Shown here: in pieces, positions 13,990 through 41,878 of the stretch
Layout: each line of letters begins with the position of its first letter
How positions within the stretch are numbered: the first letter of the stretch is position 1
Source of the DNA: Candidatus Omnitrophota bacterium
GTDB lineage: Bacteria > Omnitrophota > Gorgyraeia > Zapsychrales > Zapsychraceae
NCBI GenBank assembly: GCA_029261055.1
Contig: JAJDCA010000066.1
Coordinates: forward strand, 157 to 64,156
DNA: 64,000 nucleotides
Direction: 5' to 3'
Made by a program: the position numbers and the translations under genes
Notes under the pieces: model-generated
Told to the model about the DNA's origin: nothing
Seen by the model: only the letters and a program-made list of their open reading frames with translations
Databases searched by the model: none

Positions 13990-16900
13990 ATGCATATTTA
14001 CACAACAAAAAAACGATCAAATTTAATGTATCGAATCCTCTCAGCATTTATTGCAATAGTATTTTTAAGCACCACTATTGTGCCGCGAGGGTATACCCAA
14101 ACAGTGGTTTTACCAACAGCCACTATACTTAATTTACCTGTGCCGGGTACGATGGTAGGCATAACCGAAGGTTTTACACCTGCGATTATCAAAGGAATGA
14201 CGATTCATCCGGATAATCCTTTGGAATTTGATTTTATTGTGGGCCGCGGTGATAAAAATTTACAAGGAGATGATTTAAAAAAAGAAGGCATCAAAATAAT
14301 CAAATATTTTCTGGCTGCACTGACAACTCCTAAAGAGGACATGTGGGTAAACCTTTCCCCGTATGAAAAGAATCGTATTATTGCCGAAGGATTCGGACAA
14401 ACTGAAATGGGAGGAGATCTTTTATCTCAAGACTATCTTTTAAAACAGCTGACATCGTCATTAATGTATCCGGAAGATGAATTAGGCGGTGATTTTTGGG
14501 AAAAAGTGCATAAAAAAGCCTATGAACAGTTCGGAACAACCGATATTCCCATGAATACTTTTAATAAAATCTGGATTGTTCCAGAAAATGCCATGGTATA
14601 TGAGCATGAATCAAGCGCATTCGTAGTAGGCCGGCATTTAAAAGTGATGTTGGAGCAGGATTTTGTAGCTATGGATCATCAAAATTCTGGCATGCAAGGC
14701 ATAAAATTTGAGGTTACGACTGACAATATTGAACGAAAAAGCACGATAACTACGGAATTAATTCGTGAAATCCTTATCCCTGAGATTGAACGCGAGGTCA
14801 ATGAAGGTGAAAACTTTGCCAATTTACGTCAAATTTATAATTCTATGATTTTGGCTACATGGTATAAGCAAAACTTGAAAGAAAGTTTATTAGGACAAGT
14901 ATATATTGATAAAAATAAAATATTAGGCGTCGATGTGGAAGATAAAGATATCAAACATAAAATTTACAATCAATATATCCAGGCATTCAAAAAGGGCGTT
15001 TATAACTATATTAAGGAGGATTATGATTCTGTAACACATCAGGTCATTCCACGAAAATATTTTTCCGGAGGAACTTTATGGGTAAACGAAATTTCAGAAG
15101 TGGATAATTTAGAGGGCATTAACCTTAAACCTAAAATGATTCCTAATAAAACAGATGCTTCAATATTAACAAGTATTGTAGATGCAGGAGATGGTGCGGA
15201 TACGATTTATATTGAAGAAGTGATGAATCAATATGATGGCTCAATGTTAACCGTTCAGAGTGAGCTGGTTAGATTGAGAAATGATTTACCTTTAAATTTT
15301 TCTGGTAATTCGGATGAAATCATGGAAATTAAGAACTGGCCAAAGGTGGAACAGACAGTGAAAAACATCTCTGATGCTACCAAACAACTAATTCTTTTAT
15401 CAACAGTAAAAAATAACCTTTTTCGAGAATCAGTTCAAAAAGAAGTAGGTTTTATTTATGCCATTGCTTATTTCAGACAGCTTCTTCCGAATGATAAAAA
15501 GAAAGTTATAGAGGATTTTAATACATTGGGCCATAAGAATACTGCTGCGTGGTTAATGGAGAATAACAATTTGCATCTTGATGAATTAAAAGCCAAAATT
15601 CAGGACAAATTTGAAATTAATCTTAATCAAGAAACGGTAGAGTATATCAAAATGCATGATGAAACGGTGCGTCGATCAAGGGGGTTACGCTTAGCGGCAG
15701 ATTCTTTGAAAATATCTACCAGTGATCTTGATGTGATTTTCAAAAATCAAAGTTTGCTTGATGTTATTTTGGGATTACGCAAAGGAGCTGTTGTTGAAAT
15801 CCGACAACCTTTAAACAATTTAGAAAAAGTGCTACGACGGCTAAGATTGGCTGAAGGAGAGGCTATTCAATTTGTTCATCTTGGAAAAAATCAATATTAC
15901 GTCTATGAAGAACATCAGCTGAAACGGTTGGCGCAGGACAATGATTTAAATTATGGATTACACAGGAGTGGACTAAACCATTTGATCCAATTGGATATGG
16001 CAAAAAAACAAGGTATATTTTTTGAAGAAGCAAATAAAACAATTAATACAGATGCCCAAAAGAATATACATAGAATAAGCAGTTCCATCACTCTTTCAGA
16101 TACAAATAGAACTATGTATTTTGACGAAAAAGAAAAATTTTGGCGTGCTGATAAAACAGCCTCCCAGATTTTTGAAATTGAAAGAGTGGGAGCAGAACGA
16201 TCATATATTGCAACTATTCAAAGGGCAAAAGGATTTAAAAATGTTTTAGAATCCCAACTTGAAAATTTTTTAATATTTAATGTACAAACCCCAATCACCG
16301 TTATTGATGATTCTAACGAAACTGAACTTGAAATTAATATAAAGACAGTTAAAGAGTTTCAAAAAAAATATCAAATAGAAATTAAACATATAACAAAAAA
16401 AGAATGGGATGAAGAGTATGGATATTATGCAAAATATTTAAAGAAAACTTGGGAACAACAGCTAAATCAAGAAGTTTTACCTAACACTATTAAAGAATTT
16501 CTTTTAGAGACTGAAATTTTGCAAAAAAATATAATTAATGATGAAAAAATAGTCGAAGTCCTGCGTAGTCCAGAATTTTATCATACGTCCGGATTTCGAA
16601 ACAGACAATTTCTGATGGCTGTAGGGGAACCGATTATCCATGGATGGGATGACGATGCCCCTGCACATGTTTACGCGGTGACCGATAAAAAACGCGATCA
16701 ACTTCGCGAAGATGCCTTAAATGACAAAAAACCAATTATGCAGAACATGTTTCAAAAAGTTGGAAAAATGATTAACACAACCATTAAAAGTGAAAAAGCG
16801 TTCTATAAAGAACTCGCTAAGAACGATAATTATGACAACCCTAAAATCAAAGAGATTCTTGACAACTATTTTGGTTATGACCCCCAAGATGATCATAAAG

Positions 16901-18765: not shown

Positions 18766-18775
18766 TAAAAAAACA

Positions 18776-18803
18776 TTGACATTTTCTAAAAAAGTGATAT
18801 ATT
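18776..18803 (+). promoter_or_regulatory. sigma70-like promoter (TTGACA, 16-nt spacer, TATATT) for rplM-rpsI
   Basis: Read from sequence. The -35 plus spacer (ttgacattttctaaaaaag) is almost identical to the promoter at 42202. Confidence 0.5.
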
Positions 18804-18833
18804 TACGGTTCATCTTTTACGAGGAGAGTTTAA

Positions 18834-19268
18834 ATGATACAAAAAACATACATGGCCAAGGCATCTGAAATAGAACGTAAGTGTTATATTATTGATGCCA
18901 AAGATAAAATTTTAGGACGTATTGCTGCCAAGGCGGCTACTATTTTGCGTGGTAAACATAAAGCCATTTATACACCACATGTGGATACAGGTGACATGGT
19001 TGTGATTATTAATGCGGAGAAAGTCAAAGTTACAGGTAAAAAGTTGGAACAAAAAGAATATCAACGCTACTCTGGTTATCCTTCAGGACAAAAATCTGTC
19101 AAGCTGAGTGTTATGTTAGAAAAAGCCCCGACACGAGTACTACGTCTTGCTATAAACCGTATGATTCCAAGCGGTCCATTAGGAAATCAAGTCAAAACAA
19201 AATTAAAAATTTATGCTGGGGACCAACATCCTCATCAAGCACAAAAACCGATTGCTTTAGCGGTTTAA
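18834..19268 (+). CDS. rplM: 50S ribosomal protein L13
   Basis: ILGRIAAKAATILRGKHKAIYTPHVDTGD is diagnostic of L13. The true start could be the ATG at 18852 (MAKASE...). Confidence 0.9.
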   Translation: MIQKTYMAKASEIERKCYIIDAKDKILGRIAAKAATILRGKHKAIYTPHVDTGDMVVIINAEKVKVTGKKLEQKEYQRYSGYPSGQKSVKLSVMLEKAPTRVLRLAINRMIPSGPLGNQVKTKLKIYAGDQHPHQAQKPIALAV

Positions 19269-19291
19269 TCTAATTTAAGGAGTTTGATCAC

Positions 19292-19687
19292 ATGGTTGAA
19301 ACAGTAAAATACGGAGCTACCGGACGTCGAAAATCTTCTATTGCCCGCGTCAATTTAATTCCTGGTGAAGGAACTATTCGTGTTAATAAACGCACATTCG
19401 AAAATTATTTTCCGCGTGAGACAGACCGTATTACCATTTTAAAACCTCTTAACCTCACCAATACGCTTGGAAAATTTAATATTGAAGCTAAAGTTTCTGG
19501 TGGTGGAAGCACTGGCCAAACAGGAGCTCTTTGCTTAGGAATTTCCCGCGCTTTAGCTTTATGTGATCCTGAAAATAAACCTGTCCTCAAAAAAGCCACT
19601 CTTCTAAGACGCGATCCCAGAATGAAAGAAAGACAAAAGCCCGGTCAAAAGGGAGCGCGAAAGAAATTCCAGTGGGTTAAACGATAA
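19292..19687 (+). CDS. rpsI: 30S ribosomal protein S9
   Basis: 131 aa. YGATGRRKSSIARV N-terminus and the ...FQWVKR C-terminus typical of S9. Confidence 0.9.
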   Translation: MVETVKYGATGRRKSSIARVNLIPGEGTIRVNKRTFENYFPRETDRITILKPLNLTNTLGKFNIEAKVSGGGSTGQTGALCLGISRALALCDPENKPVLKKATLLRRDPRMKERQKPGQKGARKKFQWVKR

Positions 19688-19744
19688 CGGTTGGATATTT
19701 CTGAACGTATCGTTCAGAATTACTCACCACACATTTCAGTAATA

Positions 19745-19797
19745 AAAAGCCTATCTCCCTTTGAAAAACAATTGACGAGATAGGCTTTTTATTTTAT
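19745..19797 (+). terminator. Rho-independent terminator after rpsI
   Basis: 13-bp stem aaaagcctatctc / gagataggctttt followed by a T-run. Confidence 0.55.
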
Positions 19798-19830
19798 TAT
19801 GATTTCTAATTATTTGTCGTGGAGGATTTT

Positions 19831-20850
19831 ATGATTAAAACAGGTATAGTTGGGATTAGTGGTTATTCCGGAGGCATACTTCTAGAAATTTTATTGAAGC
19901 ACCCTCAAGTGCGCGTCACTTATGTAAGTGCCAATAATACGCACGGAAAAGTGGACACCATCTGGCCACAAGTGGCGGGATACACTAATCTTACATGTGA
20001 AAAATTTGATGTAAAAAAAGCAGCTAAACATTGTGATTTTATATTTTTAGCTGTGCCGCACACCATTGCTATGCAAGTCACGCCAGGCTTGTTAAAAGCC
20101 GGACTTCGTGTCATTGATTTAAGCGGCGATTATCGCCTTAATTCTATTCAACAATATAAAAAATGGTACGGAGCTGCACATACAGATGCCAAAAATATTA
20201 AAAAAGCGGTCTATGGGTTACCCGAGCTTTACCGTGAAAATATCAAAAAGGCCAACCTCATTGCTAATCCAGGGTGTTATCCAACAGCTGCTTTACTAGG
20301 CTTAATACCTTTAACTTCTACGCATGCCACGGCTATTCAATCTATTATTATCGATGCAAAATCAGGCGTCACAGGGGCAGGACGTAAAGCTAAACTACAA
20401 CTCAATTTTTCTGAAATAAACGAAAATTTTAAAGCGTACAAAGTTTTAAATCACCAACATGTCCCGGAAATGGAATTATATTTATCTAAAATATCTAAAG
20501 AAAAATTCACGATCAACTTTGTCCCACATTTATTACCAGTAAACCGCGGCATTTTAGAAACTATCTATGTACAAGTGAATAAATGTTTACCCTTAAAAGA
20601 TATTCATAAAATTTATACACGTTTTTATAAAACAGAACCTTTTGTACGCATTCTTCCATTAGGACAACAACCGGAATTAAATAATGTTACAAAAAATAAT
20701 TATTGTGATATCGGCCTGGCAACAGATGCAACCAATCAACTCTTGGTCATCACATCTGTCATTGACAATCTAATGAAGGGCGCTGCAGGCCAAGCCGTGC
20801 AAAATATGAATATCATGTGTGGATTTGACGAAAAAGAAGGATTACATTAA
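19831..20850 (+). CDS. argC: N-acetyl-gamma-glutamyl-phosphate reductase
   Basis: Catalytic-Cys motif GCYPTAALLGLIPL. Start placed at the ATG at 19831 behind a GGAGGA RBS. The ORF-track start at 19819 is a GTG. Confidence 0.9.
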   Translation: MIKTGIVGISGYSGGILLEILLKHPQVRVTYVSANNTHGKVDTIWPQVAGYTNLTCEKFDVKKAAKHCDFIFLAVPHTIAMQVTPGLLKAGLRVIDLSGDYRLNSIQQYKKWYGAAHTDAKNIKKAVYGLPELYRENIKKANLIANPGCYPTAALLGLIPLTSTHATAIQSIIIDAKSGVTGAGRKAKLQLNFSEINENFKAYKVLNHQHVPEMELYLSKISKEKFTINFVPHLLPVNRGILETIYVQVNKCLPLKDIHKIYTRFYKTEPFVRILPLGQQPELNNVTKNNYCDIGLATDATNQLLVITSVIDNLMKGAAGQAVQNMNIMCGFDEKEGLH

Positions 20851-20852
20851 AA

Positions 20853-21995
20853 ATGAAAATCATAAAAGGTGGAATAACACAACCTCAAGGCTTTAAATCT
20901 AACGGTATTGCCTGTGGGCTTAAAAAATCTGGAAAACTGGATCTCGGATTAATTACCAGCGATATTCCCGCAGTGTCATCTGCTGTATTCACAAAGAGTT
21001 CCATTAAAGCGGCTCCGTTGCTCGTGTGTCAAGAACACATTCGCAATCATATAACCCAGGCTATTGTTATTAATAGTGGTAATGCTAATTGTTTTACAGG
21101 AAAACAAGGCCTTGCTTGCGCTCAAAAGACCACGGAATTAATTGGCAAAAAACTCGCGATTCCTCACGAAGATGTCCTTGTCGCCTCTACAGGTATTATT
21201 GGAAAACAATTATCTTTTACAAAAATTCAAGATGGCGCCAAAAAGTTAATTAAAGGATTAAGTCCTCACGGGGCAGATAAAACCGCTCGCGCGATTTTAA
21301 CAACAGACATTACAACCAAAGAAATCACTGTTGAAATCACCTTAAGCGGCAAAAAAGTAACGATCGGTGCTTGCGCCAAAGGTTCAGGAATGATTGCCCC
21401 GAACATGGCGACCATGTTGGCGTTTATCACCACCGATGCCGCTATTAGTGCAAAAATGCTGAATACAGCCCTTAAAAGTGCGTCCGATCAATCCTTCAAT
21501 TGTATTTCTGTAGACGGATGCATGAGCACCAATGATATGGTTTCAGTAATGGCCAATGGATTGGCCAAAAATAAGAAAATTACAACGGCGAATAAAGATT
21601 ATAAAACATTCTGCAATGCCCTCAATCATGTCTGCCTTGATTTAGCTAAAAAAATTGTCTTAGATGGAGAGGGCGCCACAAAATTTATTGAAATCCAAGT
21701 TGTCGGCGCAAAAAACTATAAGCAGGCTCAAGAAGTTGGCTTAAAAGTCGCCAACTCAAATCTTGTTAAAACCGCCGCTTACGGCAATAATCCTAACTGG
21801 GGACGCGTCGCCGCTGCCGTAGGTTCCGTAGGAATTAAAGAAGTTACCGAAAATAAAATCAAATTCAAATTCAGCCCGTTCACACGAAAACATATTATCA
21901 TCCATATTAATCTTAATATCGGTGCGCACAAAGCCGTCGTCTACACCTCAGATTTATCTTATAAATACGTAAAAATTAATGTGGAGTACACCTAA
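20853..21995 (+). CDS. argJ: bifunctional ornithine acetyltransferase / N-acetylglutamate synthase
   Basis: 380 aa. ATMLAFITTDA self-cleavage site region typical of ArgJ. Confidence 0.9.
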   Translation: MKIIKGGITQPQGFKSNGIACGLKKSGKLDLGLITSDIPAVSSAVFTKSSIKAAPLLVCQEHIRNHITQAIVINSGNANCFTGKQGLACAQKTTELIGKKLAIPHEDVLVASTGIIGKQLSFTKIQDGAKKLIKGLSPHGADKTARAILTTDITTKEITVEITLSGKKVTIGACAKGSGMIAPNMATMLAFITTDAAISAKMLNTALKSASDQSFNCISVDGCMSTNDMVSVMANGLAKNKKITTANKDYKTFCNALNHVCLDLAKKIVLDGEGATKFIEIQVVGAKNYKQAQEVGLKVANSNLVKTAAYGNNPNWGRVAAAVGSVGIKEVTENKIKFKFSPFTRKHIIIHINLNIGAHKAVVYTSDLSYKYVKINVEYT

Positions 21996-22874
21996 ATGGA
22001 AGACGTCATTAAAAAAGCTGGAATTCTTGTTGAAGCGATTCCTTATATTCATGCCTTTCGACGTAAAGTATTTGTCATTAAATATGGTGGCAGTATCCTT
22101 GATCATGATGCGATCCGAAAAAACATACTCGAAGATATTGTTTTTTTGAGTTACGTTGGCATTCATACCATTCTTGTTCATGGGGGAGGGCCCCACATCA
22201 GCGGCCGCTTAAAAGAGGCCGGTGTTAAACCTGAATTCCACAATGGTATTCGTGTGACCGATAAACAAACCCTCGCTATTGTTAGCGAAGAATTAGGAAA
22301 ATTAAATAAATCTATCGTCGAAGAAATCAAAAGTTTAAAAGGGGATGTTACCGGATTAAAAGGGCATGAAAATATTATCCATGTCAAAAAACGTAAATCA
22401 TCTAAAGATCTTGGATATGTCGGAACGATTACCAACATTGAAAAAGAAGCTTTGGAAACACATTTAAAAAAAGGACACATCACCGTTGTTTCACCAATGG
22501 GTATTTCGGTAGAAAAACAACCGCATAACATCAATGCTGATGAAGTCGCTAGTGCGATTGCCACGTCTATGAACGCAGAAAAATTAGTTTTGCTCACTAA
22601 TGTACAAGGTGTCATGCGTAAAGCAGATGATCCTGAGTCATTAATTTCCACCTTAAACATCGATGAAATTCAAAATTTAATTGAACTCAATGTTATTCAA
22701 GGAGGTATGATTCCTAAAGTCAACTCTTGCGTCGAAGCTTTACACGGTGGTGTTAAAAAAACACATATCGTGGACGCCCGTATCCCGCATGCCCTCTTAC
22801 TTGAATTTTTTACCACTCTTGGTATTGGAACTCAAATACTGAAGAAATCCCATGAAAAAAAATCAAATTCTTGA
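21996..22874 (+). CDS. argB: acetylglutamate kinase
   Basis: 292 aa. VIKYGGS and HGGGP amino-acid-kinase motifs. Confidence 0.9.
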   Translation: MEDVIKKAGILVEAIPYIHAFRRKVFVIKYGGSILDHDAIRKNILEDIVFLSYVGIHTILVHGGGPHISGRLKEAGVKPEFHNGIRVTDKQTLAIVSEELGKLNKSIVEEIKSLKGDVTGLKGHENIIHVKKRKSSKDLGYVGTITNIEKEALETHLKKGHITVVSPMGISVEKQPHNINADEVASAIATSMNAEKLVLLTNVQGVMRKADDPESLISTLNIDEIQNLIELNVIQGGMIPKVNSCVEALHGGVKKTHIVDARIPHALLLEFFTTLGIGTQILKKSHEKKSNS

Positions 22875-24045
22875 AAATTACGACAAATATATCCTGTCCA
22901 CGTACACACGCACGCCCGCAATCTTTGTAAAAGGCAAAGGGATGAATCTTGTAGATATTGACGGAAAAAAATATCTCGATTTCTTTCCCGGATGGGGCGT
23001 TAACAATGTTGGGCATTGTCATCCGAAAGTTATGTCGGGCGTTCGTGATCAAATTTCAAAATTGATTCACATCCCAAATAATTTTTATCATCCTAATCAG
23101 GTCAAATTAGCCAAAGAAATCATCCGTTGTTCCTTCAAAGGAAAAGTCTTTTTTTGCAACAGTGGGGCTGAAGGCAATGAAGCGGCCATAAAATTTGCTA
23201 GGGTCTACGGCAAAGGGCAACGTCACGAGATTATTACGATGAAAAATTCCTTTCACGGACGCACTTTAGGCGCCTTAGCCGCTACAGGGCAACCCAAATA
23301 CCACGAAGGATTTGAACCATTACCTAAAGGATTTAAAACCGTACCTTTTAATGATTGGAACGCATTAGAGTCTGCTGTCACTGAAAAAACAACGGCCATT
23401 TTATTAGAATTGGTTCAAGGGGAAGGTGGCGTCAATATTGCACCTAAAGAATATATTCAAAAAATACGAAAATTATGCGATCAAAAAGATATTCTGTTAA
23501 TCCTTGATGAAGTTCAGACGGGGATGGGGCGCACAGGAACGATGTTTGCTTTTCAACAATATGATATTCAACCGGATGTCATGATTCTTGCCAAGGCTCT
23601 TGGTGGAGGATTACCGATCGGCGCTATTGTGGTTAAAGATAGTATCGCCGATACATTTCAACCTGGCATGCATGCATCCACGTTTGGTGGAAGTCCGCTT
23701 GTCAGTAAAGCGGCCTTAGGCACATTTAAAGCTATTTTCAGCGATAAAATGTTACAAAATGCAAAAAAAATCGGGGCTTATATCCTTAAAGAGCTAACGC
23801 AATTGAAACAAGAAATTCCCTACATTGTTGATGTCCGCGGTCTTGGACTGATGATTGGTATTGAGCTTAATATGGAAGGTAAAGAAATTTATGAAGAGTG
23901 CTTCAAAAATGGACTTATCATCAACTGCACACAGGGAAACATTTTACGCTTTATGCCGGCGTTAAACGTCACCAAAAAACAAGCGGATAAAGCTATTTAT
24001 ATCCTTAAAAAATCATTAACAAAGGTAACCCAAAATGAAACGTGA
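22852..24045 (+). CDS. argD: acetylornithine aminotransferase
   Basis: 397 aa. Class-III aminotransferase (LILDEVQTGMGRTG, PLP-lysine region), sitting in the arg operon. Confidence 0.85.
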   Translation: MKKNQILENYDKYILSTYTRTPAIFVKGKGMNLVDIDGKKYLDFFPGWGVNNVGHCHPKVMSGVRDQISKLIHIPNNFYHPNQVKLAKEIIRCSFKGKVFFCNSGAEGNEAAIKFARVYGKGQRHEIITMKNSFHGRTLGALAATGQPKYHEGFEPLPKGFKTVPFNDWNALESAVTEKTTAILLELVQGEGGVNIAPKEYIQKIRKLCDQKDILLILDEVQTGMGRTGTMFAFQQYDIQPDVMILAKALGGGLPIGAIVVKDSIADTFQPGMHASTFGGSPLVSKAALGTFKAIFSDKMLQNAKKIGAYILKELTQLKQEIPYIVDVRGLGLMIGIELNMEGKEIYEECFKNGLIINCTQGNILRFMPALNVTKKQADKAIYILKKSLTKVTQNET

Positions 24046-24973
24046 CTTAATGAGTTTACATGATTTATCATCCGACGAAATTCTGCATATTCTAGATCTT
24101 ACGCAAAAAATCAAAAATGATAAAACAATGGGGAAGGCAATTCTCAAAGACCAATCGATTGGTCTTGTATTCCAAAAACCATCCAACCGAACACGCGTAT
24201 CATTTGAAGTCGGTGTCACGCAGCTTGGCGGACATTGTTTGTACTTAGGGCCGGATGAAATTAATTTAGGTGTCCGTGAATCAACAGCTGACGTTTCCAA
24301 AACATTATCCCGGTATTTAAACGGTATTGTCGCTCGAACGCATACCCACCAGGATATTGAAGACCTTTGTCGTTATTCATCTGTCCCTGTAATTAACGGC
24401 CTGTCGGATTTATATCATCCTTGCCAGGCGTTAACTGATCTTTTTTCAATTAAAGAAAAATTTGAACAGATTAAAGGTTTAACTTTTGCTTATATCGGAG
24501 ATGGCAACAATGTCTGCCACTCCTTATTAATCGGATGTGCTAAAGTCGGCATTCATATAAATGTAGCAACACCCAAAGGATATGAACCTGACGAAGACGT
24601 TATCGAAACGGCTAAGACTTATGCAGAACAATCCGGCGTCAGCATTGATTTAAGCAACTCTCCCGAGGAAGCCGTTGGACAAGCCGATGTCATTTATACC
24701 GATGTTTGGGTCAGCATGGGACAGGAAAAAGAATCTGAAAAACGCTTAGCTGATTTTGATAATTTTCAAATCAACGAAAAACTCATGCAATTAGCCAACA
24801 ATAAACACATCTTCATGCACTGCCTGCCAGCTCACCGCGGCCAGGAAGTCACCGCAGAAGTGATCGACGGCCCCAATTCCATCGTCTTCGACCAAGCCGA
24901 AAACCGGTTACATACGCAAAAAGCAGTACTGATGTTTTTATTCCAAACACAAGAGACCTGTCAAACTGAATAA
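24035..24973 (+). CDS. argF: ornithine carbamoyltransferase
   Basis: 312 aa. STRTR carbamoyl-phosphate motif and HCLP ornithine-binding motif. Confidence 0.85.
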   Translation: MKRDLMSLHDLSSDEILHILDLTQKIKNDKTMGKAILKDQSIGLVFQKPSNRTRVSFEVGVTQLGGHCLYLGPDEINLGVRESTADVSKTLSRYLNGIVARTHTHQDIEDLCRYSSVPVINGLSDLYHPCQALTDLFSIKEKFEQIKGLTFAYIGDGNNVCHSLLIGCAKVGIHINVATPKGYEPDEDVIETAKTYAEQSGVSIDLSNSPEEAVGQADVIYTDVWVSMGQEKESEKRLADFDNFQINEKLMQLANNKHIFMHCLPAHRGQEVTAEVIDGPNSIVFDQAENRLHTQKAVLMFLFQTQETCQTE

Positions 24974-26310
24974 TGAAAGAATCTGAAACAACTGAACTTA
25001 AAAAGTCTACCGCTGAATTGAAAGATGCCGTTATTTCCATTGCAGCGATTCTCAATAAACATAGCCAGGGAGATATATATTTTGGGATAAAGGATAATGG
25101 GACTATCGTTGGACAGACGGTTGGTCGCCATACTATTAAAGAAGTCACGCAGACAATTGTGGACAATATTGAACCAAAAATTTATCCCAAAATTGAAGCA
25201 AAAAAAATCAAAGGCAAAGAGTGCGTCGTTGTAGAATTTCAAGGTTTGAACAGTCCCTATTTTGCTTATGGCCGGGCGTATATGCGCGTTGGAGAGTCTG
25301 ACAAACAACTAACTGTTAAGGAAATCGAAGAACAGATTGTGAAAAGAAAAAAATTTCTATGGGAAAGTGAGATTTCTAAGAAAACCTTGGAGGATGTTAA
25401 TGACGCAGCTATCCAAGAGTTTATGCGCAAAGCAAAAGAGGCTGGCCGGATTAATTTTGAGTTTACAAGCACGAAAGAGACACTTCGGAAACTTAGCTTG
25501 CTATCTGGAGATCAGTTAACAATGGCCGCCGAAATTTTGTTTTGCGATAACAGTCGTATGGAAATTCAGGCTGCTGTTTTTGCTACAGCAGTAAAGGCCA
25601 CTTTTCTTGATATCAGTAAATTTGAAGGAAATCTTTTTAGCCTGCGTAAACAGGCGGAAGCCTATGTCAAAGAGCACATGAAATGGCGAGCAGACATGAC
25701 TGGAAGTCGACGCAAAGAAATTCCAGAAATTCCCATACGAGCACTTTCCGAAGCAATTGGAAATTCATTGTGCCATCGGGATTATTCAAATCCAAAAGGT
25801 AATGAGGTTGCAATTTTCAAAGACCGAATTGAAATTTACAACCCAGGACAATTTCCAAATGAATTAGATCCGGATGATTTTATCAAAGGTGACGGATATT
25901 CTGTTTTACGTAATCCTTTGATTGCAGAAACAATGTACCGTTCTGAAGATATTGAAAAATGGGCGAGTGGCCTAAGACGGATTTACGATGAGTGTATGAC
26001 GAATCAGGTAAAGGTCGAGTTCAAAAGAGTTAAAACAGGATTTGTTGTGTGTTTTTATCGGCCTAAATGGGAAAACGGCGAAGGTTTAGAACAAAACATC
26101 CAGGAAGGTAAAGAGAAAAGTTCGGAGAAAAGTTCGGAGAAAATACTTCGCTTACTTAAAGAAAATAACACCATTTCTGCCCAAGAATTATCAGGATTAA
26201 TCGGAATAAGCTCCCGTGCCGTTGAAAAACATTTAGCCACATTGAAGAAATTAAACAAAATTAAACGTGTCGGCCCGGATAAGGGGGGGCATTGGGAAGC
26301 TGTGGAATAA
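24973..26310 (+). CDS. AlbA_2 (divergent AAA / Schlafen-like) plus HATPase_c_4/wHTH putative DNA-binding regulator (often mis-annotated as RecG-like)
   Basis: 445 aa. N-terminal ESETTELKKS...GDIYFGIKDNGTIVG (AlbA_2 core). Central IRALSEAIGNSLCHRDY (HATPase_c_4). C-terminal wHTH (ISAQELSGLIGISSRAVEKHLATLKKL). Its start overlaps the argF stop (TAATG). Confidence 0.6.
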   Translation: MKESETTELKKSTAELKDAVISIAAILNKHSQGDIYFGIKDNGTIVGQTVGRHTIKEVTQTIVDNIEPKIYPKIEAKKIKGKECVVVEFQGLNSPYFAYGRAYMRVGESDKQLTVKEIEEQIVKRKKFLWESEISKKTLEDVNDAAIQEFMRKAKEAGRINFEFTSTKETLRKLSLLSGDQLTMAAEILFCDNSRMEIQAAVFATAVKATFLDISKFEGNLFSLRKQAEAYVKEHMKWRADMTGSRRKEIPEIPIRALSEAIGNSLCHRDYSNPKGNEVAIFKDRIEIYNPGQFPNELDPDDFIKGDGYSVLRNPLIAETMYRSEDIEKWASGLRRIYDECMTNQVKVEFKRVKTGFVVCFYRPKWENGEGLEQNIQEGKEKSSEKSSEKILRLLKENNTISAQELSGLIGISSRAVEKHLATLKKLNKIKRVGPDKGGHWEAVE

Positions 26311-26403
26311 TATTTTCTTGATATTGCATCATAACTCCATCGAATTCGATGGGTTTAAAAATATATTAAATTCAAATATAAAAAACTCAGAACTTGCTAT
26401 TAC

Positions 26404-28494
26404 ATGAAAAACTTCATCTATACACTCTTATTTACCCTTAGCATCCTTTTATTTTGCCAAGCTGAGGCAGGTTTCACAAAAGTCACTTCATCAATGGATA
26501 CCAAAAAAACACCTATCCCGGCAGAAGAAATTATTCAAAAACTTATAAATACTTATGCGGTTATGGAAAACTATCAAAGTGAGGCCAAATATATAGGGCA
26601 GTTTGAAATCGATGGACAGATTGTAAAAACTGAAACGACTATGTTGATCAAATTAGGCAAGCCAAACTTATATCACATCAATTGGAAATCTCAGGAGAAC
26701 CAATTTGGCGAAAGCCCAGGAACAATTTGGAACGCCGGGAAAGGAGCATTTAAGTATACCGAATCAACAAATACTTATATCCAAATTTCAGAAATGCCAC
26801 AAGAATCATGTGAGATGAAAAATCAAAAAGAATGGTTGAATATAACAGAGCCATTGTTTGACATTTTCTTTAATTGCAACAATACCTCTTCAAAAATAAC
26901 ACAATTTAGATTAGTAGGAACAGATACGATCAACGGAGAAGACAACTACATCCTCCATCAAACCAATGATTCTTACAAACACACTTTATGGATTTCTAAA
27001 AAAGATTTCTTGATCAATAGGTATAAAAAAGAACCCCTGACAGAAGATTTAAGTATAGATGCCTTATCTGCAAGCCTGATAGATTCTTATGAAGATATGG
27101 GAATTGATCTTACTGAACAGGACAAATCAAAAATAAACAAATTTACGGGAATTTCTTATTTCTCATTAAATACAAGTGAATTTAAAAATATGCACATAGC
27201 ACTAAATTTTTATAATAATTTAATTGATGAAATAAAAGATAATAATGAATTCATATATTCTCTTCCTGAAAATGCTCAACTAAAATCATCTGAAAATATT
27301 ATTCCAAACAAAGAATCTATGCTACGCATACTAAAAAATCTAGATGGATTAAATTATACAATGTTATACACAAAAGGTCTTGAGCTTAGCGAAGAATCCG
27401 TAAGCGACCTCGAGAAAGAATTAGAAAACGATCCTTATAATTTTGAAATACGTTTGCAGATAATAGGGTATTACAGTGCTGATACTGACTCCGAAGAATA
27501 TCGCAGAATTAAAAATAAACACATTCTGTGGATTATTGAAAACCAACCGGATTATAAGGAAGGTAGTAGTATAATCTCTTCCCTATTTTATATTTTTCCT
27601 GACATTAATCCAAATGCCTATGATAAAGCCAAATCATTGTGGTTAAAACAAATTGAACTTCATAAAGATAATCCTGTTGTACTTACGAACGCATCTAAAT
27701 TTTTTTACCTTGTAGACAGTGAACTCTCAAAAGAAATTTTAAATATTGGAAAAAATATTGATCCAGATAATCTTTATTGGGAAGAAAGATTAAAATTCTT
27801 AAATTCATTAAATCCAAAAGATGGTATTCATAAAGAGTATTATGTCAACGGAAAATTAAAATTAGAGACAGAATATAAAGACGGCAAATACAATGGAATA
27901 TATAAAACATATTATGAAAGCGGCTCTTTAAAATTTGATGGAAATGTTAAAAATGGCGTTTATCACGGGATGGGAAAAAAGTATTATGAAAATGGACAAA
28001 TAAGTTTTATCGGGAATTTCAAAGAAGGAGCAAATGATGGTCTGTATAAATTTTTTCATGAAAGTGGTGAATTAATGCACACGTGTACGCAACAATTTAA
28101 AAAAGAAGGATTTACCCGAAAAGACTGCCAACAATATTCTTCAACAGGTGAAATAGAAAAAGAATATTATGCATTAATTTATAAACAGGATAAAGGTACT
28201 ACTCTGGAAAAAATATTTACAAACGATCATCTGTCTATTGAAAAAATCTATGATGAAAATGGGACTATTATAAAAGAAAAAGCATATACTAACGATGGGA
28301 AGCTAAAAGATGGCATTAATTATAACTACTATGATACTGGTAAAGTTCATTATGCACTAAATTACAAAAAGGGGATAAGAAAAGGTGTTAGTAAAGAGTA
28401 TTATGAAAACGGCAGCTTAAAAAAAGAAGTATCTTACACAAAGACGGCAAAAGAATTGGAATTTACAAAGAATTTTATGAAACTGGGGAAATAA
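26404..28494 (+). CDS. secreted MORN-variant (YwqK-like) repeat protein; apparent frameshift near 28436, with the repeat array continuing in another frame to 28583
   Basis: 696 aa. Signal peptide and a C-terminal array of YYENG.LK.E..YK.GK..G repeats. After the annotated stop, the +1 frame reads KDGKRIGIYKEFYETGEIKEEWSYKEGELIRKKKY...*, i.e. two further perfect MORN-variant repeats. Confidence 0.7.
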   Translation: MKNFIYTLLFTLSILLFCQAEAGFTKVTSSMDTKKTPIPAEEIIQKLINTYAVMENYQSEAKYIGQFEIDGQIVKTETTMLIKLGKPNLYHINWKSQENQFGESPGTIWNAGKGAFKYTESTNTYIQISEMPQESCEMKNQKEWLNITEPLFDIFFNCNNTSSKITQFRLVGTDTINGEDNYILHQTNDSYKHTLWISKKDFLINRYKKEPLTEDLSIDALSASLIDSYEDMGIDLTEQDKSKINKFTGISYFSLNTSEFKNMHIALNFYNNLIDEIKDNNEFIYSLPENAQLKSSENIIPNKESMLRILKNLDGLNYTMLYTKGLELSEESVSDLEKELENDPYNFEIRLQIIGYYSADTDSEEYRRIKNKHILWIIENQPDYKEGSSIISSLFYIFPDINPNAYDKAKSLWLKQIELHKDNPVVLTNASKFFYLVDSELSKEILNIGKNIDPDNLYWEERLKFLNSLNPKDGIHKEYYVNGKLKLETEYKDGKYNGIYKTYYESGSLKFDGNVKNGVYHGMGKKYYENGQISFIGNFKEGANDGLYKFFHESGELMHTCTQQFKKEGFTRKDCQQYSSTGEIEKEYYALIYKQDKGTTLEKIFTNDHLSIEKIYDENGTIIKEKAYTNDGKLKDGINYNYYDTGKVHYALNYKKGIRKGVSKEYYENGSLKKEVSYTKTAKELEFTKNFMKLGK

Positions 28495-28623
28495 AGGAAG
28501 AGTGGAGTTACAAAGAAGGAGAATTAATTCGTAAAAAGAAATATGCTACATCAGGTAATATGCTTTCTGTAGAAAATTACTAAACCAAAAAATATACTAT
28601 TACATTGCTTTAGGAGAAACCAC

Positions 28624-29790
28624 ATGAAAAAAATTGTACTTGCTTACTCGGGGGGGTTAGATACCTCGTGTCTTATCAAATGGTTTGAGGAAAAAGGGTA
28701 TGATGTTATTGCCTTTATTGCGGATGTGGGGCAGGGGGAGGACTTTACTTCCATCAAAAAGCGTGCTCTGGCTACAGGAGCATCCAAGGTCTACTGTCTG
28801 AATTTACAAAAAGAGTTTGTGACGGATTATGTATTTCCGGCGCTTAAGGCTGGGGCGCTTTATGAAGAGAAATATAATTTAGCTTGCGCGTTATCTCGGC
28901 CATTGATTGCCAAGCATCTTGTGGACATTGCCCATAAAGAAAAGGCCCACGCAATTGCGCACGGGTGTACTGGTAAAGGTAACGATCAAGTACGATTTGA
29001 AGTGACCGCGCGTTTGATTGACCCTAAAATTGAAATTATCGCACCCGTGCGTTTTTGGGAGTTTAAAACACGGGACGAAGAAATTGAATATGCAAAATCT
29101 AAAAAAATTCCTGTGAGTGTAACCAAAAAAAGTCCGTACAGTATTGATGTCAATCTCTACGGCCGTGCGATTGAATGCGGTGTCTTAGAGGATCCTTGGC
29201 AAGAACCTCCGGAAGATATTTATGCGTTGACGGAAAACCCGATCAAGGCGCCTAATAAACCGACTTATGTCACCATTGATTTTGTGAAGGGTATTCCTCA
29301 AAAAATTGATGGCAAGGCGTATGCGCCTGTTACCTTAATCCAAAAACTGAATCAAATTGGTGGGAAAAATAGCGTCGGCCGTGTCGATATGGTAGAAAAC
29401 CGTTTGGTAGGTATTAAATCCCGTGAAATTTACGAAAATCCCGCTGGGACGATTCTTTACGCCGCTCTGCACGAATTAGAATGTTTAGTCTTAGACCGCG
29501 AAACTATGCGTTACAAACAAGCGGCCGCACAAAAGTATGCGGAGTTGACCTATAACGGTCTTTGGTGTATACCTTTAAAGACTCAATTGGATTCTTATTT
29601 TAACACAGTCCATAAAAACACCACCGGCACCGTTCGTCTAAAACTTTTCAAAGGAAATTGTACGGTCGCAGGACGTAAATCAAAATATTCGCGATACAAA
29701 GAAGAAATGGCAACCTACGGGGAAAAAGACATCTTCGACCAAAAACAATCCGAAGGCTTTGTCAAACTCTGGGGCATGCCTTTTGCATAA
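28624..29790 (+). CDS. argG: argininosuccinate synthase
   Basis: 388 aa. AYSGGLDTS PP-loop and the rest of the ArgG fold. Confidence 0.9.
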   Translation: MKKIVLAYSGGLDTSCLIKWFEEKGYDVIAFIADVGQGEDFTSIKKRALATGASKVYCLNLQKEFVTDYVFPALKAGALYEEKYNLACALSRPLIAKHLVDIAHKEKAHAIAHGCTGKGNDQVRFEVTARLIDPKIEIIAPVRFWEFKTRDEEIEYAKSKKIPVSVTKKSPYSIDVNLYGRAIECGVLEDPWQEPPEDIYALTENPIKAPNKPTYVTIDFVKGIPQKIDGKAYAPVTLIQKLNQIGGKNSVGRVDMVENRLVGIKSREIYENPAGTILYAALHELECLVLDRETMRYKQAAAQKYAELTYNGLWCIPLKTQLDSYFNTVHKNTTGTVRLKLFKGNCTVAGRKSKYSRYKEEMATYGEKDIFDQKQSEGFVKLWGMPFA

Positions 29791-29794
29791 TTGA

Positions 29795-29905
29795 AATAGA
29801 AGCAGAGAAGCAAAGAAGCAAAATGCAAAGAAAAAAACAACTAATCTAAACATTTTATCTCTCTGCCTCTTGCCGCTTTACACCTCTGCCTCTTTAAATT
29901 GGAGT
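29795..29905. repeat. GA-arm / CT-arm hairpin intergenic repeat, copy 1 (argG|argH spacer)
   Basis: aatagaagcagagaagcaaagaagcaaa...tctctgcctcttgccgctttacacctctgcctctttaaattgg. Related copies at 36301-36415 and 45291-45420. All three end in ctcttt(t)aaa just before the next gene. Confidence 0.5.
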
Positions 29906-29912
29906 TAGAACT

Positions 29913-31286
29913 ATGACAAAATTTTGGGGAAGTCGATTTGCTAAGAAAACAGATAGCCTCGCTGATCAATTTAGCTTTAGTATCAGCTATGATTATCGTT
30001 TAGCTATATATGATGTCCTGGGTAGCATTGCTCATGCCAATATGCTTGGCAAATGCAAAATCATCAGTAAAAAAGATGCTTCTGAAATTGTTTCAGGTTT
30101 GAAGAAAATAGGGAAGCAATTGGAAGAAGAGACCTTCAAATTTGATACTAAAGCCGAAGATATTCATACCAACATTCAATCAGCACTTAAAAAATTAATA
30201 GGGCCAGCGGCTGATAAACTGCATACGGCACGTTCCCGCAATGATCTTATTGCACTGGACATGAAATTATATTGTCTCGTCGAATTGACGATGATTATGG
30301 ATTTGATAGCTAAACTACAAAAATCTATCATCAAATTTGCGGATAAACATCAAGATGTTATTGTCCCGGCCTATACGCACCTTCAAGCCGCCCAAGTGGT
30401 TTTATTATCCCATCATATGCTGGCTTATGTCGAAATGCTTGACCGTGACAAAAATCGTTTGATGGATACACTCAACCGCACAGATGTTATGCCCTTGGGA
30501 AGTTGCGCCTTATCCGGAACATCGCTTGAAACGGACCGTGACTTTGTGACCAAAGAATTAGGCTTTTTAGCGACAACCCAAAATAGCATCGATTCTGTCA
30601 GCGACCGCGACTTTATTATTGAATCCTTATCGAATTTGGCAATGCTTGGCATACACGCGTCCCGTATCTCAGAAGATTTTATTATCTGGGCGACAAGTGA
30701 ATTTAATTTTATCAATATCGACTGGTCCTTATGTACAGGGTCATCCATAATGCCGCACAAAAAGAATCCGGATATTTTAGAATTAGTCCGTGGAGAGACG
30801 GCCAAGCTCTGCAGCAATTTAAATGAAATATTAATTTTGATGAAAGGTCTACCGTTGACATATAACCGTGATATGCAACTGGACAAACCGCCACTTTTTG
30901 AATCTGTGGAAAAATCAAAAGAGATATTACAACTATTGTCGTCATTGTTTACAGGACTTAAGGTCAATAAAAAAGTCCTCAAAGAACGTATCAACGATGA
31001 ATCATTTTTTTCTGTCGACATTATGGAATACTTAATCAAAAAAGGTATTTCTTACCGCGAAGCGCATGATATCGTTGGAACAATGATCAAAGAATGCGTT
31101 GATAAAGGAAACAAAATTGCAGACTTAAGCAAAGAAGAATTAAAAAAGTATTGCCCAAAGTTCGATACTGATGTAAAAGAACTGCTTAATCCGGAGACGT
31201 CAGTAAAAATGAAAAAATCTCTCGGGTCAACGAATCCTCAAATGGTTAAAAAACAGATTGAGGGATGGAAGAAAAAATTGTTGTAA
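29913..31286 (+). CDS. argH: argininosuccinate lyase
   Basis: 457 aa. Fumarase/aspartase family with the GSS.MPHKKNPD signature. Confidence 0.9.
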   Translation: MTKFWGSRFAKKTDSLADQFSFSISYDYRLAIYDVLGSIAHANMLGKCKIISKKDASEIVSGLKKIGKQLEEETFKFDTKAEDIHTNIQSALKKLIGPAADKLHTARSRNDLIALDMKLYCLVELTMIMDLIAKLQKSIIKFADKHQDVIVPAYTHLQAAQVVLLSHHMLAYVEMLDRDKNRLMDTLNRTDVMPLGSCALSGTSLETDRDFVTKELGFLATTQNSIDSVSDRDFIIESLSNLAMLGIHASRISEDFIIWATSEFNFINIDWSLCTGSSIMPHKKNPDILELVRGETAKLCSNLNEILILMKGLPLTYNRDMQLDKPPLFESVEKSKEILQLLSSLFTGLKVNKKVLKERINDESFFSVDIMEYLIKKGISYREAHDIVGTMIKECVDKGNKIADLSKEELKKYCPKFDTDVKELLNPETSVKMKKSLGSTNPQMVKKQIEGWKKKLL

Positions 31287-39128: not shown

Positions 39129-40406
39129 ATGTGCCTGGGCCGTCTTGAAATAATGAAGAGATATACTATGTTTAATCGTCCAATAAAATCAATTGTTATT
39201 TTTCTTACCCTATTCAACATTCTCTGCATGTGGAACTTAAAATCAGGCTATGCGGAGAAAAGCAAAGAAGGCATCATCAAAGAATTTTATCCTGATGGAT
39301 CCTTAGAGACTCAACGACACTATAAAGCCAATAAACTTAATGGAAAAAGTCAAACATTTTACAATAACGGCCAATTAATGAGTGAAGCAACCTACAAAGA
39401 TGATATCCTTAATGATACTTACAAAACTTTTTATGAAAATGGTAAAACATATTTTATTAAAAGATTTAACAAAGGAATTCAAGATGGTGAAGCTAAAGAA
39501 TATTATGAAAATGGCCAATTAAAAAGTGAAGAAACTTACGTCAACGACAAACTACAAGGTTTAAGTAAATATTATTTTGATGATGGTCAACTTAAATATT
39601 TTATGAATTTTAAAAAGGGCCAGTTAGAAGGAATCAGTAAAGAATACTACCAGAATGGAAAAATAAAAAGCACTGTTACCTATAAAGATGGGAAGTGGCA
39701 TGGATTAGTAAAAGAACACGAGGAAACCGGACATTTAATAGCTGAATGGGAATATCTCAATGGGAAAAGAAACGGTATTTCCAAAATCTTTTATCCTGAT
39801 GGTAAATTAAAATGGAAAGCAAATTTCAAAAATGATGAAATGAATGGCCCCAGTCTTGCCTTTGCCAAAAACGGCCAACAAATCATGGAAACAAATTTTA
39901 ACCAAAATAAATTGCATGGGCTCGTTACAGAAAACTATTCAGATGGAACATTAAAACGTGTTTCTCATTATAAAAATGACTTAAAAAATGGCCTTACAAA
40001 AGAATACTTTGAAAATGGCACATTAAGCCTCGAACGACATTATAAAGAGGCTAGAGAAGTAGGCGTTTCAAAAGAATATTATGAGGATGGAAGCCTCTGG
40101 ATTACAAGAACCTACTTAAATGAAAATAACGATGGAACATTGCGAGAATATTACGAAACAGGTGAATTAAAACAACAATGGATCATAAAAAACGGCCTCA
40201 TTCATGATATCAGTAAGTCCTACTACAAAATTGGCAAATTAATGACCGAAGAATACTATTTTGAAGGAAAGAAAAATGGTATCAGCCGTCTATACCGCCA
40301 AAATGGATCAATCGTCTATGAAGATACATACATGGATGGCGCCAGAATAAACCGAAAAATGTTTGATGAAAACGGAAAAATAATACAACCCGCCGATAAA
40401 AACTAA
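39129..40406 (+). CDS. secreted MORN-variant (YwqK-like) repeat protein
   Basis: 425 aa. Hydrophobic N-terminus, then about 14 repeats of the YYENGQLK.E..Y...K.G form. The start may instead be 39144. Confidence 0.7.
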   Translation: MCLGRLEIMKRYTMFNRPIKSIVIFLTLFNILCMWNLKSGYAEKSKEGIIKEFYPDGSLETQRHYKANKLNGKSQTFYNNGQLMSEATYKDDILNDTYKTFYENGKTYFIKRFNKGIQDGEAKEYYENGQLKSEETYVNDKLQGLSKYYFDDGQLKYFMNFKKGQLEGISKEYYQNGKIKSTVTYKDGKWHGLVKEHEETGHLIAEWEYLNGKRNGISKIFYPDGKLKWKANFKNDEMNGPSLAFAKNGQQIMETNFNQNKLHGLVTENYSDGTLKRVSHYKNDLKNGLTKEYFENGTLSLERHYKEAREVGVSKEYYEDGSLWITRTYLNENNDGTLREYYETGELKQQWIIKNGLIHDISKSYYKIGKLMTEEYYFEGKKNGISRLYRQNGSIVYEDTYMDGARINRKMFDENGKIIQPADKN

Positions 40407-41878
40407 TGAAAAAAAAACAAAAACAAAATTTTGCTTTATCTATCGAAAAAGAATCAATTTTAAGAAAATTCACTATTTTATTTTTGTTAATGTCTTTCCT
40501 TCCAATGAGCCTTCTTTATTACCTATATTTTCAAATTAAAGAATATGGCTCCGTTCAAATCAGCGAAGAAAACTTTAACCTCACTTTATCTATCATTATC
40601 ATTGGAATTATTGTCGGTTATTTTGCCATGCGTTCTGTAATAAAAAAAGTCATGGAATTAGCTCATGCTAATCGAAAAGCTCTGGAAAAAATACTAAGCC
40701 CGGATAAAATTAAAGAACTCAGCAATGAAAAAAATGAAATTGCTGTTTTAGCTAAATCATTTAAAAGTATCACTCAACGGTTGGAAGAAAATGTCCAAAA
40801 TCTCAAGAGTGCCAAACAGACACTTCATGCCGTTATGACGAAAATTGGCCATGGTATTTCCAACATACAAAATATTGACACTTTTTTAGAATTAATTTTA
40901 GAAACCATCACAGACGCATTCTTAGGGGAAGTAGGGGTCTTATTGGTTCGTACTGAAAAAGAGAATGAACTACAAATAAGGACTATTCATGGAATAAAAT
41001 CTAAACGATTGAAGAAAAATAAAATATCTTTTGAATCTGAGTCTGTTTTTGCTGATATTTTAGCATCAAAAAAACCCCGCATCATATCGGACATAGAGCC
41101 AGAAACTCTTGAACTCAAAAAATATGACCCCTTATTTAAACCGCCGTTGCTATGTTCCCCTTTAATTGTCCACGAAAACTGTTGTGGTATTATTGCTGTA
41201 AGCGGAAAAATAAAAAGTAAAAACTTTGGTGAAGATGAACTAAATCAATTTTTTAATTTTGCATCCCAGACAGCCGTTGCTTTAGAAAACTCTCGATTAA
41301 ATAAAAACATTGAAAAAACCTATTTTGAGACTATATCGGCTCTAGCTTTGGCGGTAGATGCAAAAGATAAATATTCTCGAGGACACCTGGAGCGCGTTTC
41401 CAAATATTGCGTTCAAACAGCAGAAAAACTTGGACTCGAAGAAGAAGATATAAACACCTTACGGGATGCCGCTAAACTGCATGATTTAGGAAAAATTGGT
41501 ATTCCAGATGAAGTTTTAGCTAAAAAAGGACCTCTAAACGATCAAGAATGGGCTTTAATGCGTAAACATCCTGAAATTGGAGAAAGCATCATCAAACCTA
41601 TTCGCTCCCTAAACCATTTATGTGACATCATCCGCCATCATCATGAAAAACTTGACGGAAGCGGATATCCTGATGGAATAAAAGGGGATAACATCACGCC
41701 GTTAGTTAGAATTCTTACCGTTGCTGATATCTACGATGCACTAACTACAAATCGATCTTATAGAGAAAGAATGCCTAAAGAAAAAGCCTATCAGCTCCTT
41801 CGTAACATGCAAGATCAAATTGATCAAGACATCGTAGAAACCTTTATTGAAACATTAGAAGAAGAGACCCTTCCATAA
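40406..41878 (+). CDS. membrane-anchored GAF + HD-GYP c-di-GMP phosphodiesterase-type protein
   Basis: 490 aa. Two N-terminal TM helices and an HD-GYP domain (HDLGKIGIPDEVL ... HHEKLDGSGYP). Confidence 0.75.
   Translation: MKKKQKQNFALSIEKESILRKFTILFLLMSFLPMSLLYYLYFQIKEYGSVQISEENFNLTLSIIIIGIIVGYFAMRSVIKKVMELAHANRKALEKILSPDKIKELSNEKNEIAVLAKSFKSITQRLEENVQNLKSAKQTLHAVMTKIGHGISNIQNIDTFLELILETITDAFLGEVGVLLVRTEKENELQIRTIHGIKSKRLKKNKISFESESVFADILASKKPRIISDIEPETLELKKYDPLFKPPLLCSPLIVHENCCGIIAVSGKIKSKNFGEDELNQFFNFASQTAVALENSRLNKNIEKTYFETISALALAVDAKDKYSRGHLERVSKYCVQTAEKLGLEEEDINTLRDAAKLHDLGKIGIPDEVLAKKGPLNDQEWALMRKHPEIGESIIKPIRSLNHLCDIIRHHHEKLDGSGYPDGIKGDNITPLVRILTVADIYDALTTNRSYRERMPKEKAYQLLRNMQDQIDQDIVETFIETLEEETLP

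Follow-up and report, generated by a model that had tools for sequence, protein, structure and literature searches.

The window analysed here, a 64,000-nucleotide stretch of DNA from Candidatus Omnitrophota bacterium, contains an arginine biosynthesis (arg) cluster in which argF and argG are separated by two genes, one for a Schlafen-type protein of 445 amino acids (aa) and one for a protein with MORN repeats. Upstream of the Schlafen gene, which is an intact open reading frame (ORF), matches to Pfam and NCBIfam identify rplM, rpsI, argC, argJ, argB, argD and argF, in this order, and downstream lie a MORN_2/DUF2092 gene, argG, argH, lysA, dapF, dapA and dapB. The succession argCJBDF, Schlafen gene, MORN gene, argGH, which had been read in an earlier note made from the sequence alone, is thereby confirmed. 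The main features of the locus are the following:

19832..24973, plus strand, argC, argJ, argB, argD and argF (Pfam/NCBIfam; synteny over 30 Omnitrophota loci)
24944..24973, plus strand, lineage-specific 9-residue tail of ArgF, QTQETCQTE, and stop codon (comparison with the ends of relatives' ArgF)
24971..24975, plus strand, TAATG formed by the argF stop and the start of the Schlafen gene (sequence)
24973..26310, plus strand, Schlafen gene with SLFN_AlbA_2, GHKL-type HATPase_c_4 and winged helix-turn-helix (wHTH) domains (Pfam, homologues)
26404..28583, plus strand, second inserted gene, DUF2092 (LolA-like) and MORN_2 repeats, annotated ORF 26404..28494 (Pfam, translations)
28624..31286, plus strand, argG and argH, pushed 3.65 kb away from argF (Pfam, synteny)

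Ancestral gene order and the insertion

An ArgF scan covering one genome per GTDB species, followed by mapping of all window proteins onto the loci found, yielded 29 Omnitrophota loci (L005-L033 and L040); together with L078, which carries the nearest ArgF relative (72% identity), 30 loci were available for comparison. A search of 5.8 billion proteins likewise found no ArgF above 72% identity. In all 30 loci, the gene order is rplM-rpsI-argCJBDF-argG-argH-lysA-dapF-dapA-dapB, as far as each contig extends, and argG lies immediately 3' of argF in each of the 28 loci that reach past argF. No homologue of either the Schlafen or the MORN protein was found at any of these other Omnitrophota arg loci. 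The 3.6-kb block between 24973 and about 28600 is a lineage-specific insertion, because 28 of 28 relatives pass from argF to argG without either gene; the synteny comparison proposed in the earlier note thus showed that the gene order with the Schlafen gene is not conserved in Omnitrophota (0 of 28 arg operons).

The distance from the argF stop to the argG start in the Omnitrophota relatives is usually 0-20 nt, or the two genes overlap by 4 nt, and the ancestral argF-argG junction was probably tight and translationally coupled. The relatives' ArgF proteins stop 0-7 residues past a conserved LxFL[FL] motif; the tail of the window ArgF extends beyond this end, which suggests that the original stop codon was displaced and that argF now terminates in inserted sequence, and the segment 24944..24973 is probably the left edge of the insertion.

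Comparison of the loci further revealed that other Omnitrophota lineages carry unrelated genes at the same or neighbouring junctions. Prepilin-type N_methyl genes encoding 132-138 aa lie at the argF-argG junction in two loci (L019, 10383-10799; L031, 10886-11348), a DUF2007 gene occupies it in a third (L011, 4545-4799) and 488 bp of AT-rich DNA in a fourth (L006, 7146-7633), and in the nearest relative, L078, a bAvd/23S_rRNA_IVP gene (9163-9701) separates argG from argH. The gene junctions of the arg operon therefore appear to be permissive insertion sites in Omnitrophota.

The left boundary of the block is exact. The argF stop codon TAA (24971-24973) and the ATG of the Schlafen gene (24973-24975) overlap by one base, as had been pointed out before and as the sequence bears out, and an in-frame TGA at 24967-69 makes any start upstream of 24973 impossible. 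The overlap is real yet typical of this genome, because of the 42 pairs of adjacent window genes on the same strand, 14 overlap or are separated by at most 2 nt, and a second TAATG (40404-40408) joins a gene for a MORN_2 paralogue (39129..40406) to one for a protein with GAF and HD domains (40406..41878). Two antisense ORFs over the boundary (24849..25166 and 24961..25308) lack family matches, have TTG starts and were rejected as spurious.

The 696-aa product of the second inserted gene begins with a lipoprotein-like signal peptide and a DUF2092 region, and MORN_2 repeats follow. The gene is frameshifted near 28436 (tacACaaagac) and so loses its last repeat: the annotated frame ends at 28494, and another frame continues a clean MORN_2 repeat (KDGKRIGIYKEFYETGEIKEEWSYKEGEL...) up to a TAA at 28581-83. 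The protein is an orphan, with matches among the 5.8 billion proteins limited to the repeat region (25-31% identity over about 30% of the length).

The layout was also compared with an independent assembly, the Logan contigs of run SRR15505515, which were reached through identical ArgF and MORN protein entries. Contig L077 aligns with window positions 18035-26142 at 100% identity and covers the argF junction; contig L079, according to its coordinates and gene calls, continues from about 26114 through the MORN protein, with the identical 696-aa sequence, to argG and argH. The sole break between the two contigs is a short repeat within the Schlafen gene, which encodes the linker EKSSEKSSEK between the GHKL domain and the wHTH:

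26113..26143, plus strand, 12-nt perfect tandem repeat GAGAAAAGTTCG, 2.6 copies (Tandem Repeats Finder)

Domains, motifs and homologues of the Schlafen protein

The assignment of AlbA_2, HATPase_c_4 and wHTH domains to the 445-aa protein, made earlier from the letters of the sequence, is supported by Pfam, with all three domains exceeding their gathering thresholds. SLFN_AlbA_2 (PF04326), at residues 3-113, scores 62.8 bits (cut-off 25.3; E = 5e-17) and aligns over positions 1-117 of the 118 in its profile, and HATPase_c_4 (PF13749) lies C-terminal to it at residues 278-360 (64.2 bits against a cut-off of 26; E = 1e-17). For the wHTH, profile searches of the PDB gave weak matches to MarR, AsnC and ArsR-type regulators. 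The following elements were mapped within the gene:

24979..25002, plus strand, Schlafen catalytic motif Ex4ExK (E3, E8, K10), codons 3-10, ESETTELK (sequence, alignment)
25750..25764, plus strand, ExxxN pair E260/N264, codons 260-264, EAIGN (invariant in the 42-sequence alignment)
26134..26265, plus strand, C-terminal wHTH, residues 388-431 (HTH_24, 29.2 bits; HTH_11, 30.3 bits)

In the alignment of 42 homologues, E8 and K10 do not vary, and the conservation of E3 is 90% or higher. We read E260/N264 as the putative GHKL N-box for Mg/ATP: the spacing equals that of E314/N318 in RzAgo, the Schlafen-containing prokaryotic Argonaute (SLFN-pAgo) of Runella zeae, the two pairs being likened by their spacing, and the EAIGN of the window protein aligns with EAMLN of PDB entry 3LMM. 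Because the Ex4ExK motif (E3, E8, K10) and the E260/N264 pair are both kept, the protein is predicted to belong to the class described as prokaryotic Schlafen (pSlfn) HisKinase-HTH or as Schlatpase + HTH.

A search for relatives returned 2374 homologues, the best of which are full length and 59-72% identical; the homologues with a source name come from metagenome-assembled genomes of Candidatus Omnitrophota, and the top match in metagenome contigs has 72% identity. No record came up when the exact sequence of the protein, or the identical database entry P0001, was looked up. PADLOC returned only partial matches, to the SLFN-containing pAgo and Aga SIR2 models, so that the protein belongs to no catalogued system.

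Genomic contexts of the homologues

We inspected 13 distinct neighbourhoods of close homologues (59-72% identity), and in none of the 13 does an arg gene adjoin the homologue. The neighbours are:

L001, LexA and Y-family polymerase
L003/L004, HsdM-TIR-HsdS-SIR2-HsdR (type I restriction-modification) and integrase
L055/L066, Phd-PIN and AbiEii
L056, Mrr and DUF2442
L058, LigT
L061/L062, AbiTii and group II intron reverse transcriptase
L063, Xre/MbcA/ParS-like protein
L064, DUF6577-AbiEii
L065, AAA_14/DUF4143 and ATPase_2/DUF234 ATPases
L072, BrnT/BrnA
L073, HsdR, KAP NTPase, T5orf172 and AbiEii
L075 (6001-8130), 61% identical, Fic; co-directional within a polysaccharide-biosynthesis operon (NeuB, radical SAM, glycosyltransferase)
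L076, integrase and TIR protein

The earlier remark that the Schlafen-like core also occurs in defence contexts agrees with these neighbourhoods, which include homologues beside toxin-antitoxin, Abi, restriction-modification, TIR and SIR2 genes. Remoter relatives occur on plasmids (98 records, 45 of which are conjugative) and in phages (27 records). The contexts match the published association with defence islands, in which 69.6% of pSlfn genes lie within 10 kb of a defence gene and 30.4% do not (PMC13056530). The homologue in L075 is a second instance of a member of this Schlafen family within a biosynthetic operon.

In the window, the annotated genes within 10 kb of the Schlafen gene are all housekeeping except for a 1591-aa ORF without a Pfam match (13990-18765), directly upstream of rplM. 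Another long ORF, opening at about 58155, comprises more than 1940 codons with a signal-peptide-like N-terminus and runs past the end of the window (64000).

Expression signals and arginine regulation

The signals around the arg genes would fit expression of the inserted genes together with the operon. A promoter-like element lies upstream of argC and, judged by its match to the consensus, is probably where the transcript through the inserted genes starts:

19772..19800, plus strand, TTGACG-17 nt-TATTAT upstream of argC (consensus match only)

No terminator-like site was detected on the plus strand from 24689 to 28653, and no promoter belonging to the inserted Schlafen gene itself was recognised. 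The 25 nt upstream of the Schlafen gene contain no GGAG, GAGG or AGGA resembling a Shine-Dalgarno motif; such a motif is present in 20 of the 43 window genes, and argG has an AGGAG of its own. Given the missing terminator-like site, the missing Shine-Dalgarno motif and the TAATG overlap, we infer that the Schlafen gene is expressed by hitch-hiking on the arg operon.

The possibility raised earlier of an ARG box upstream of argC found no support: scanning the window gave 62 matches, compared with about 67 expected by chance, and none of them falls in the argC leader. In addition, the Pfam and NCBIfam searches gave no match to Arg_repressor. Without an ARG-box signal, the window gives no clear sign of a classical ArgR system. 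The spacer between rpsI and argC (19690-19835) contains two hairpins, tctgaacgtatcgttcaga and aagcctatctc...gagataggctt, the latter followed by a T-rich run, and TTGACG, the -35-like element of the argC promoter prediction, lies in the loop of the second; these hairpins could form a terminator or an attenuator-like leader. The likely start of argC is the ATG at 19832, which follows GGAGG, rather than the GTG at 19819.

Origin and possible role of the inserted Schlafen gene

Taking these observations together, we consider it probable, with moderate confidence, that the Schlafen gene was acquired horizontally and inserted into the argF-argG spacer, and that it encodes a Schlafen-type effector that hitch-hikes on the arg operon rather than a regulator of it. 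Under this scenario, a stand-alone Schlafen gene would have been gained by horizontal transfer, probably from another Omnitrophota genome, and would have entered the very short argF-argG spacer of the rplM-rpsI-argCJBDFGH-lysA-dapFAB cluster, with the orphan MORN lipoprotein gene arriving along with it or beside it. Transcription from the arg promoter would then reach the gene by read-through, and ribosomes that terminate on argF would reinitiate at the TAATG. By analogy with RzAgo and RorSlfn5, the GHKL domain may bind ATP and thereby promote oligomerisation, which could assemble the putative Schlafen active site (E3, E8, K10); the triggered enzyme might cleave tRNA or other RNA and cause growth arrest, possibly in defence, and the wHTH would serve as a nucleic-acid sensor or as an autoregulator.

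Several observations speak against this scenario. We found no flanking direct or inverted repeats over 24700-28800 beyond the MORN repeats and chance matches; the tRNA and Rfam scans detected no such element near the locus, and no recombinase, integrase or transposase is encoded by the ORFs from 8.6 to 41.9 kb that were scanned with Pfam. The composition of the Schlafen gene is not deviant (GC 0.392 and GC content at third codon positions 0.336, both z = 0.2 relative to the window genes), as would be expected if the donor had a similar composition or if the insertion were old. The earlier proposal that the block might differ in composition held only for the MORN gene, which is GC-low (0.304, z = -2.5); the deficit lies mainly in codon positions 1 and 2 and is therefore due to amino-acid composition, and neither gene's composition is evidence for foreign origin. 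No defence gene is located within 10 kb of the Schlafen gene in the window, the neighbours being glycine cleavage, ribosomal, arg, lys and dap genes. Transcription and translational coupling of the gene are deduced from sequence signals only. The AlphaFold2 model of the protein, computed from the 42-sequence alignment, has a mean predicted local distance difference test score (pLDDT) of 56.9 and a predicted template modelling score (pTM) of 0.36, too poor for a check of active-site geometry. Among published systems, the HisKinase fusions chosen for testing in Escherichia coli are not among the two protective systems reported (PMC13056530), phage defence has been demonstrated for no stand-alone Schlatpase-HTH protein, and proteins of this architecture have no demonstrated activity.

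A chimeric assembly, in which the arg operon had been joined to unrelated DNA, would be in keeping with the metagenome-assembled source and with an insertion that was found nowhere else. It is nevertheless very unlikely, and we give it next to no credence, because the two Logan contigs reproduce the layout, L077 being identical across the argF junction and L079 having the MORN protein, argG and argH; moreover, the composition is homogeneous and the two genes meet in an exact, in-frame overlap of stop and start codons. The earlier note had proposed either an operon-embedded regulator or a fixed insertion. The insertion as such is borne out, the gene being present in 0 of 28 relatives. The regulator, a transcription factor whose wHTH would bind arg or lys promoters and which would replace ArgR, appears improbable: none of the 28 other Omnitrophota arg operons extending past argF has the gene, its 59-72% identical homologues never adjoin arg genes, and it keeps conserved nuclease and ATPase motifs that a plain repressor would not need. 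What favours such a regulator is the C-terminal wHTH of MarR/AsnC/ArsR type, an expression seemingly coupled to argF, and the window's lack of an ARG-box signal and of an evident classical ArgR; we also count on its side the annotation "predicted transcriptional regulator" (COG2865) that this protein family historically carried.

Two further explanations concern what the protein does, if anything, at its present location. It could be a neutral or decaying passenger, tolerated, functionless and on its way to a pseudogene, in line with the 3' frameshift already present in the inserted MORN neighbour and with an insertion known from one genome. The full-length Schlafen reading frame argues otherwise, as do a codon composition like that of the genome, an exact stop-start overlap that spares a catalytic motif starting at residue 3, and the retention of all invariant columns of the 42-sequence alignment (by construction); we judge such decay to be quite unlikely. 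Alternatively, the protein could be a non-immune growth-arrest or stress module resembling TrlG of Photorhabdus and tied to arginine limitation through the arg operon. TrlG, which combines AlbA_2 and HATPase_c_4, arrests replication on a temperature upshift, 30.4% of pSlfn genes are located away from defence genes (PMC13056530), and the neighbourhood in the window is entirely housekeeping. Such a module would overlap the scenario of a hitch-hiking effector but is unlikely overall, given that occurrence in a single lineage offers no sign of a selected connection with arginine, that the junction gathers unrelated genes in other lineages, and that the nearest homologues reside in defence or toxin-antitoxin contexts.

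If the gene is a hitch-hiking Schlafen-type effector, as we favour, the locus offers a clean natural case of a defence-island-type Schlafen gene outside such islands, within a highly conserved biosynthetic operon and apparently dependent on the promoter and ribosomes of a host gene. It also draws attention to the junctions of the Omnitrophota arg-lys cluster as permissive landing sites and adds one more case to the approximately 30% of prokaryotic Schlafens without defence neighbours. A selected arrangement, in which a Schlafen-type RNase effector is placed under the transcriptional and translational control of the arg operon so that its dose rises on arginine starvation, we regard as a long shot; if true, the cell would respond to an amino-acid-starvation signal by shutting off translation or by defence, and unless this coupling holds, the locus has no bearing on arginine regulation.

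Comparison with known systems

Among regulators of arginine metabolism, ArgR/AhrC resembles the window protein in being a winged-helix DNA-binding protein associated with arg genes; however, the two have no sequence or domain relationship, and the window shows no ARG boxes above chance. The sole solved structure with sequence similarity to the Schlafen protein is PDB 3LMM, an uncharacterised structural-genomics entry that matches window residues 22-340 continuously over AlbA_2 and GHKL (E = 1.9e-8) but is 583 aa long and has a different C-terminus.

A second comparison, based on domain content, is with TrlG of Photorhabdus laumondii (Temperature Restricting Locus), which is chromosomal, as is the window gene, and has the same AlbA_2 and HATPase_c_4 domains. 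Unlike the window gene, TrlG belongs to a three-gene, temperature-induced operon of its own. Loss-of-function mutants of TrlG escape temperature-induced replication arrest (bioRxiv 10.1101/2020.06.02.129163), and since TrlG arrests replication on induction, stand-alone relatives of this kind can arrest growth.

RzAgo shares with the window protein the N-terminal SLFN and GHKL module, and the PADLOC model PDLC02394 covers window residues 14-321. RzAgo has been shown to form tetramers driven by ATP and to cleave tRNA, and its E314/N318 coordinate Mg-ATP (Kuzmenko et al., bioRxiv 10.64898/2026.05.29.728809). The window protein, in contrast, lacks the sensor core of PAZ, MID and PIWI, whose place is taken by a 60-residue wHTH, so that the trigger must differ.

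The closest counterparts are the HisKinase-HTH and Schlatpase-HTH proteins. In a survey of Schlafen RNases, the pSlfn catalytic motif was defined as Ex4(E/D)xK, and HisKinase-HTH proteins make up 19.2% of 5,930 pSlfn proteins (Perez Taboada et al., Nat Microbiol 2026, PMC13056530). The Schlatpase supradomain (SLFN + GHKL) was found in 58.6% of 103,533 prokaryotic SLFN proteins, and most Schlatpase proteins are stand-alone or carry a short C-terminal HTH (bioRxiv 10.64898/2026.05.29.728809). The window protein resembles these in the order PF04326, PF13749 and HTH, in Ex4ExK and a putative GHKL ExxxN pair, and in the defence, toxin-antitoxin or mobile neighbourhoods of its close homologues. It differs in the location of the window copy, which overlaps the preceding gene of a core biosynthetic operon in a defence-free 10 kb, an unusual position that is explained by permissive operon junctions. 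The protein thus adds to a known, recently characterised kind rather than revealing a new kind of system.

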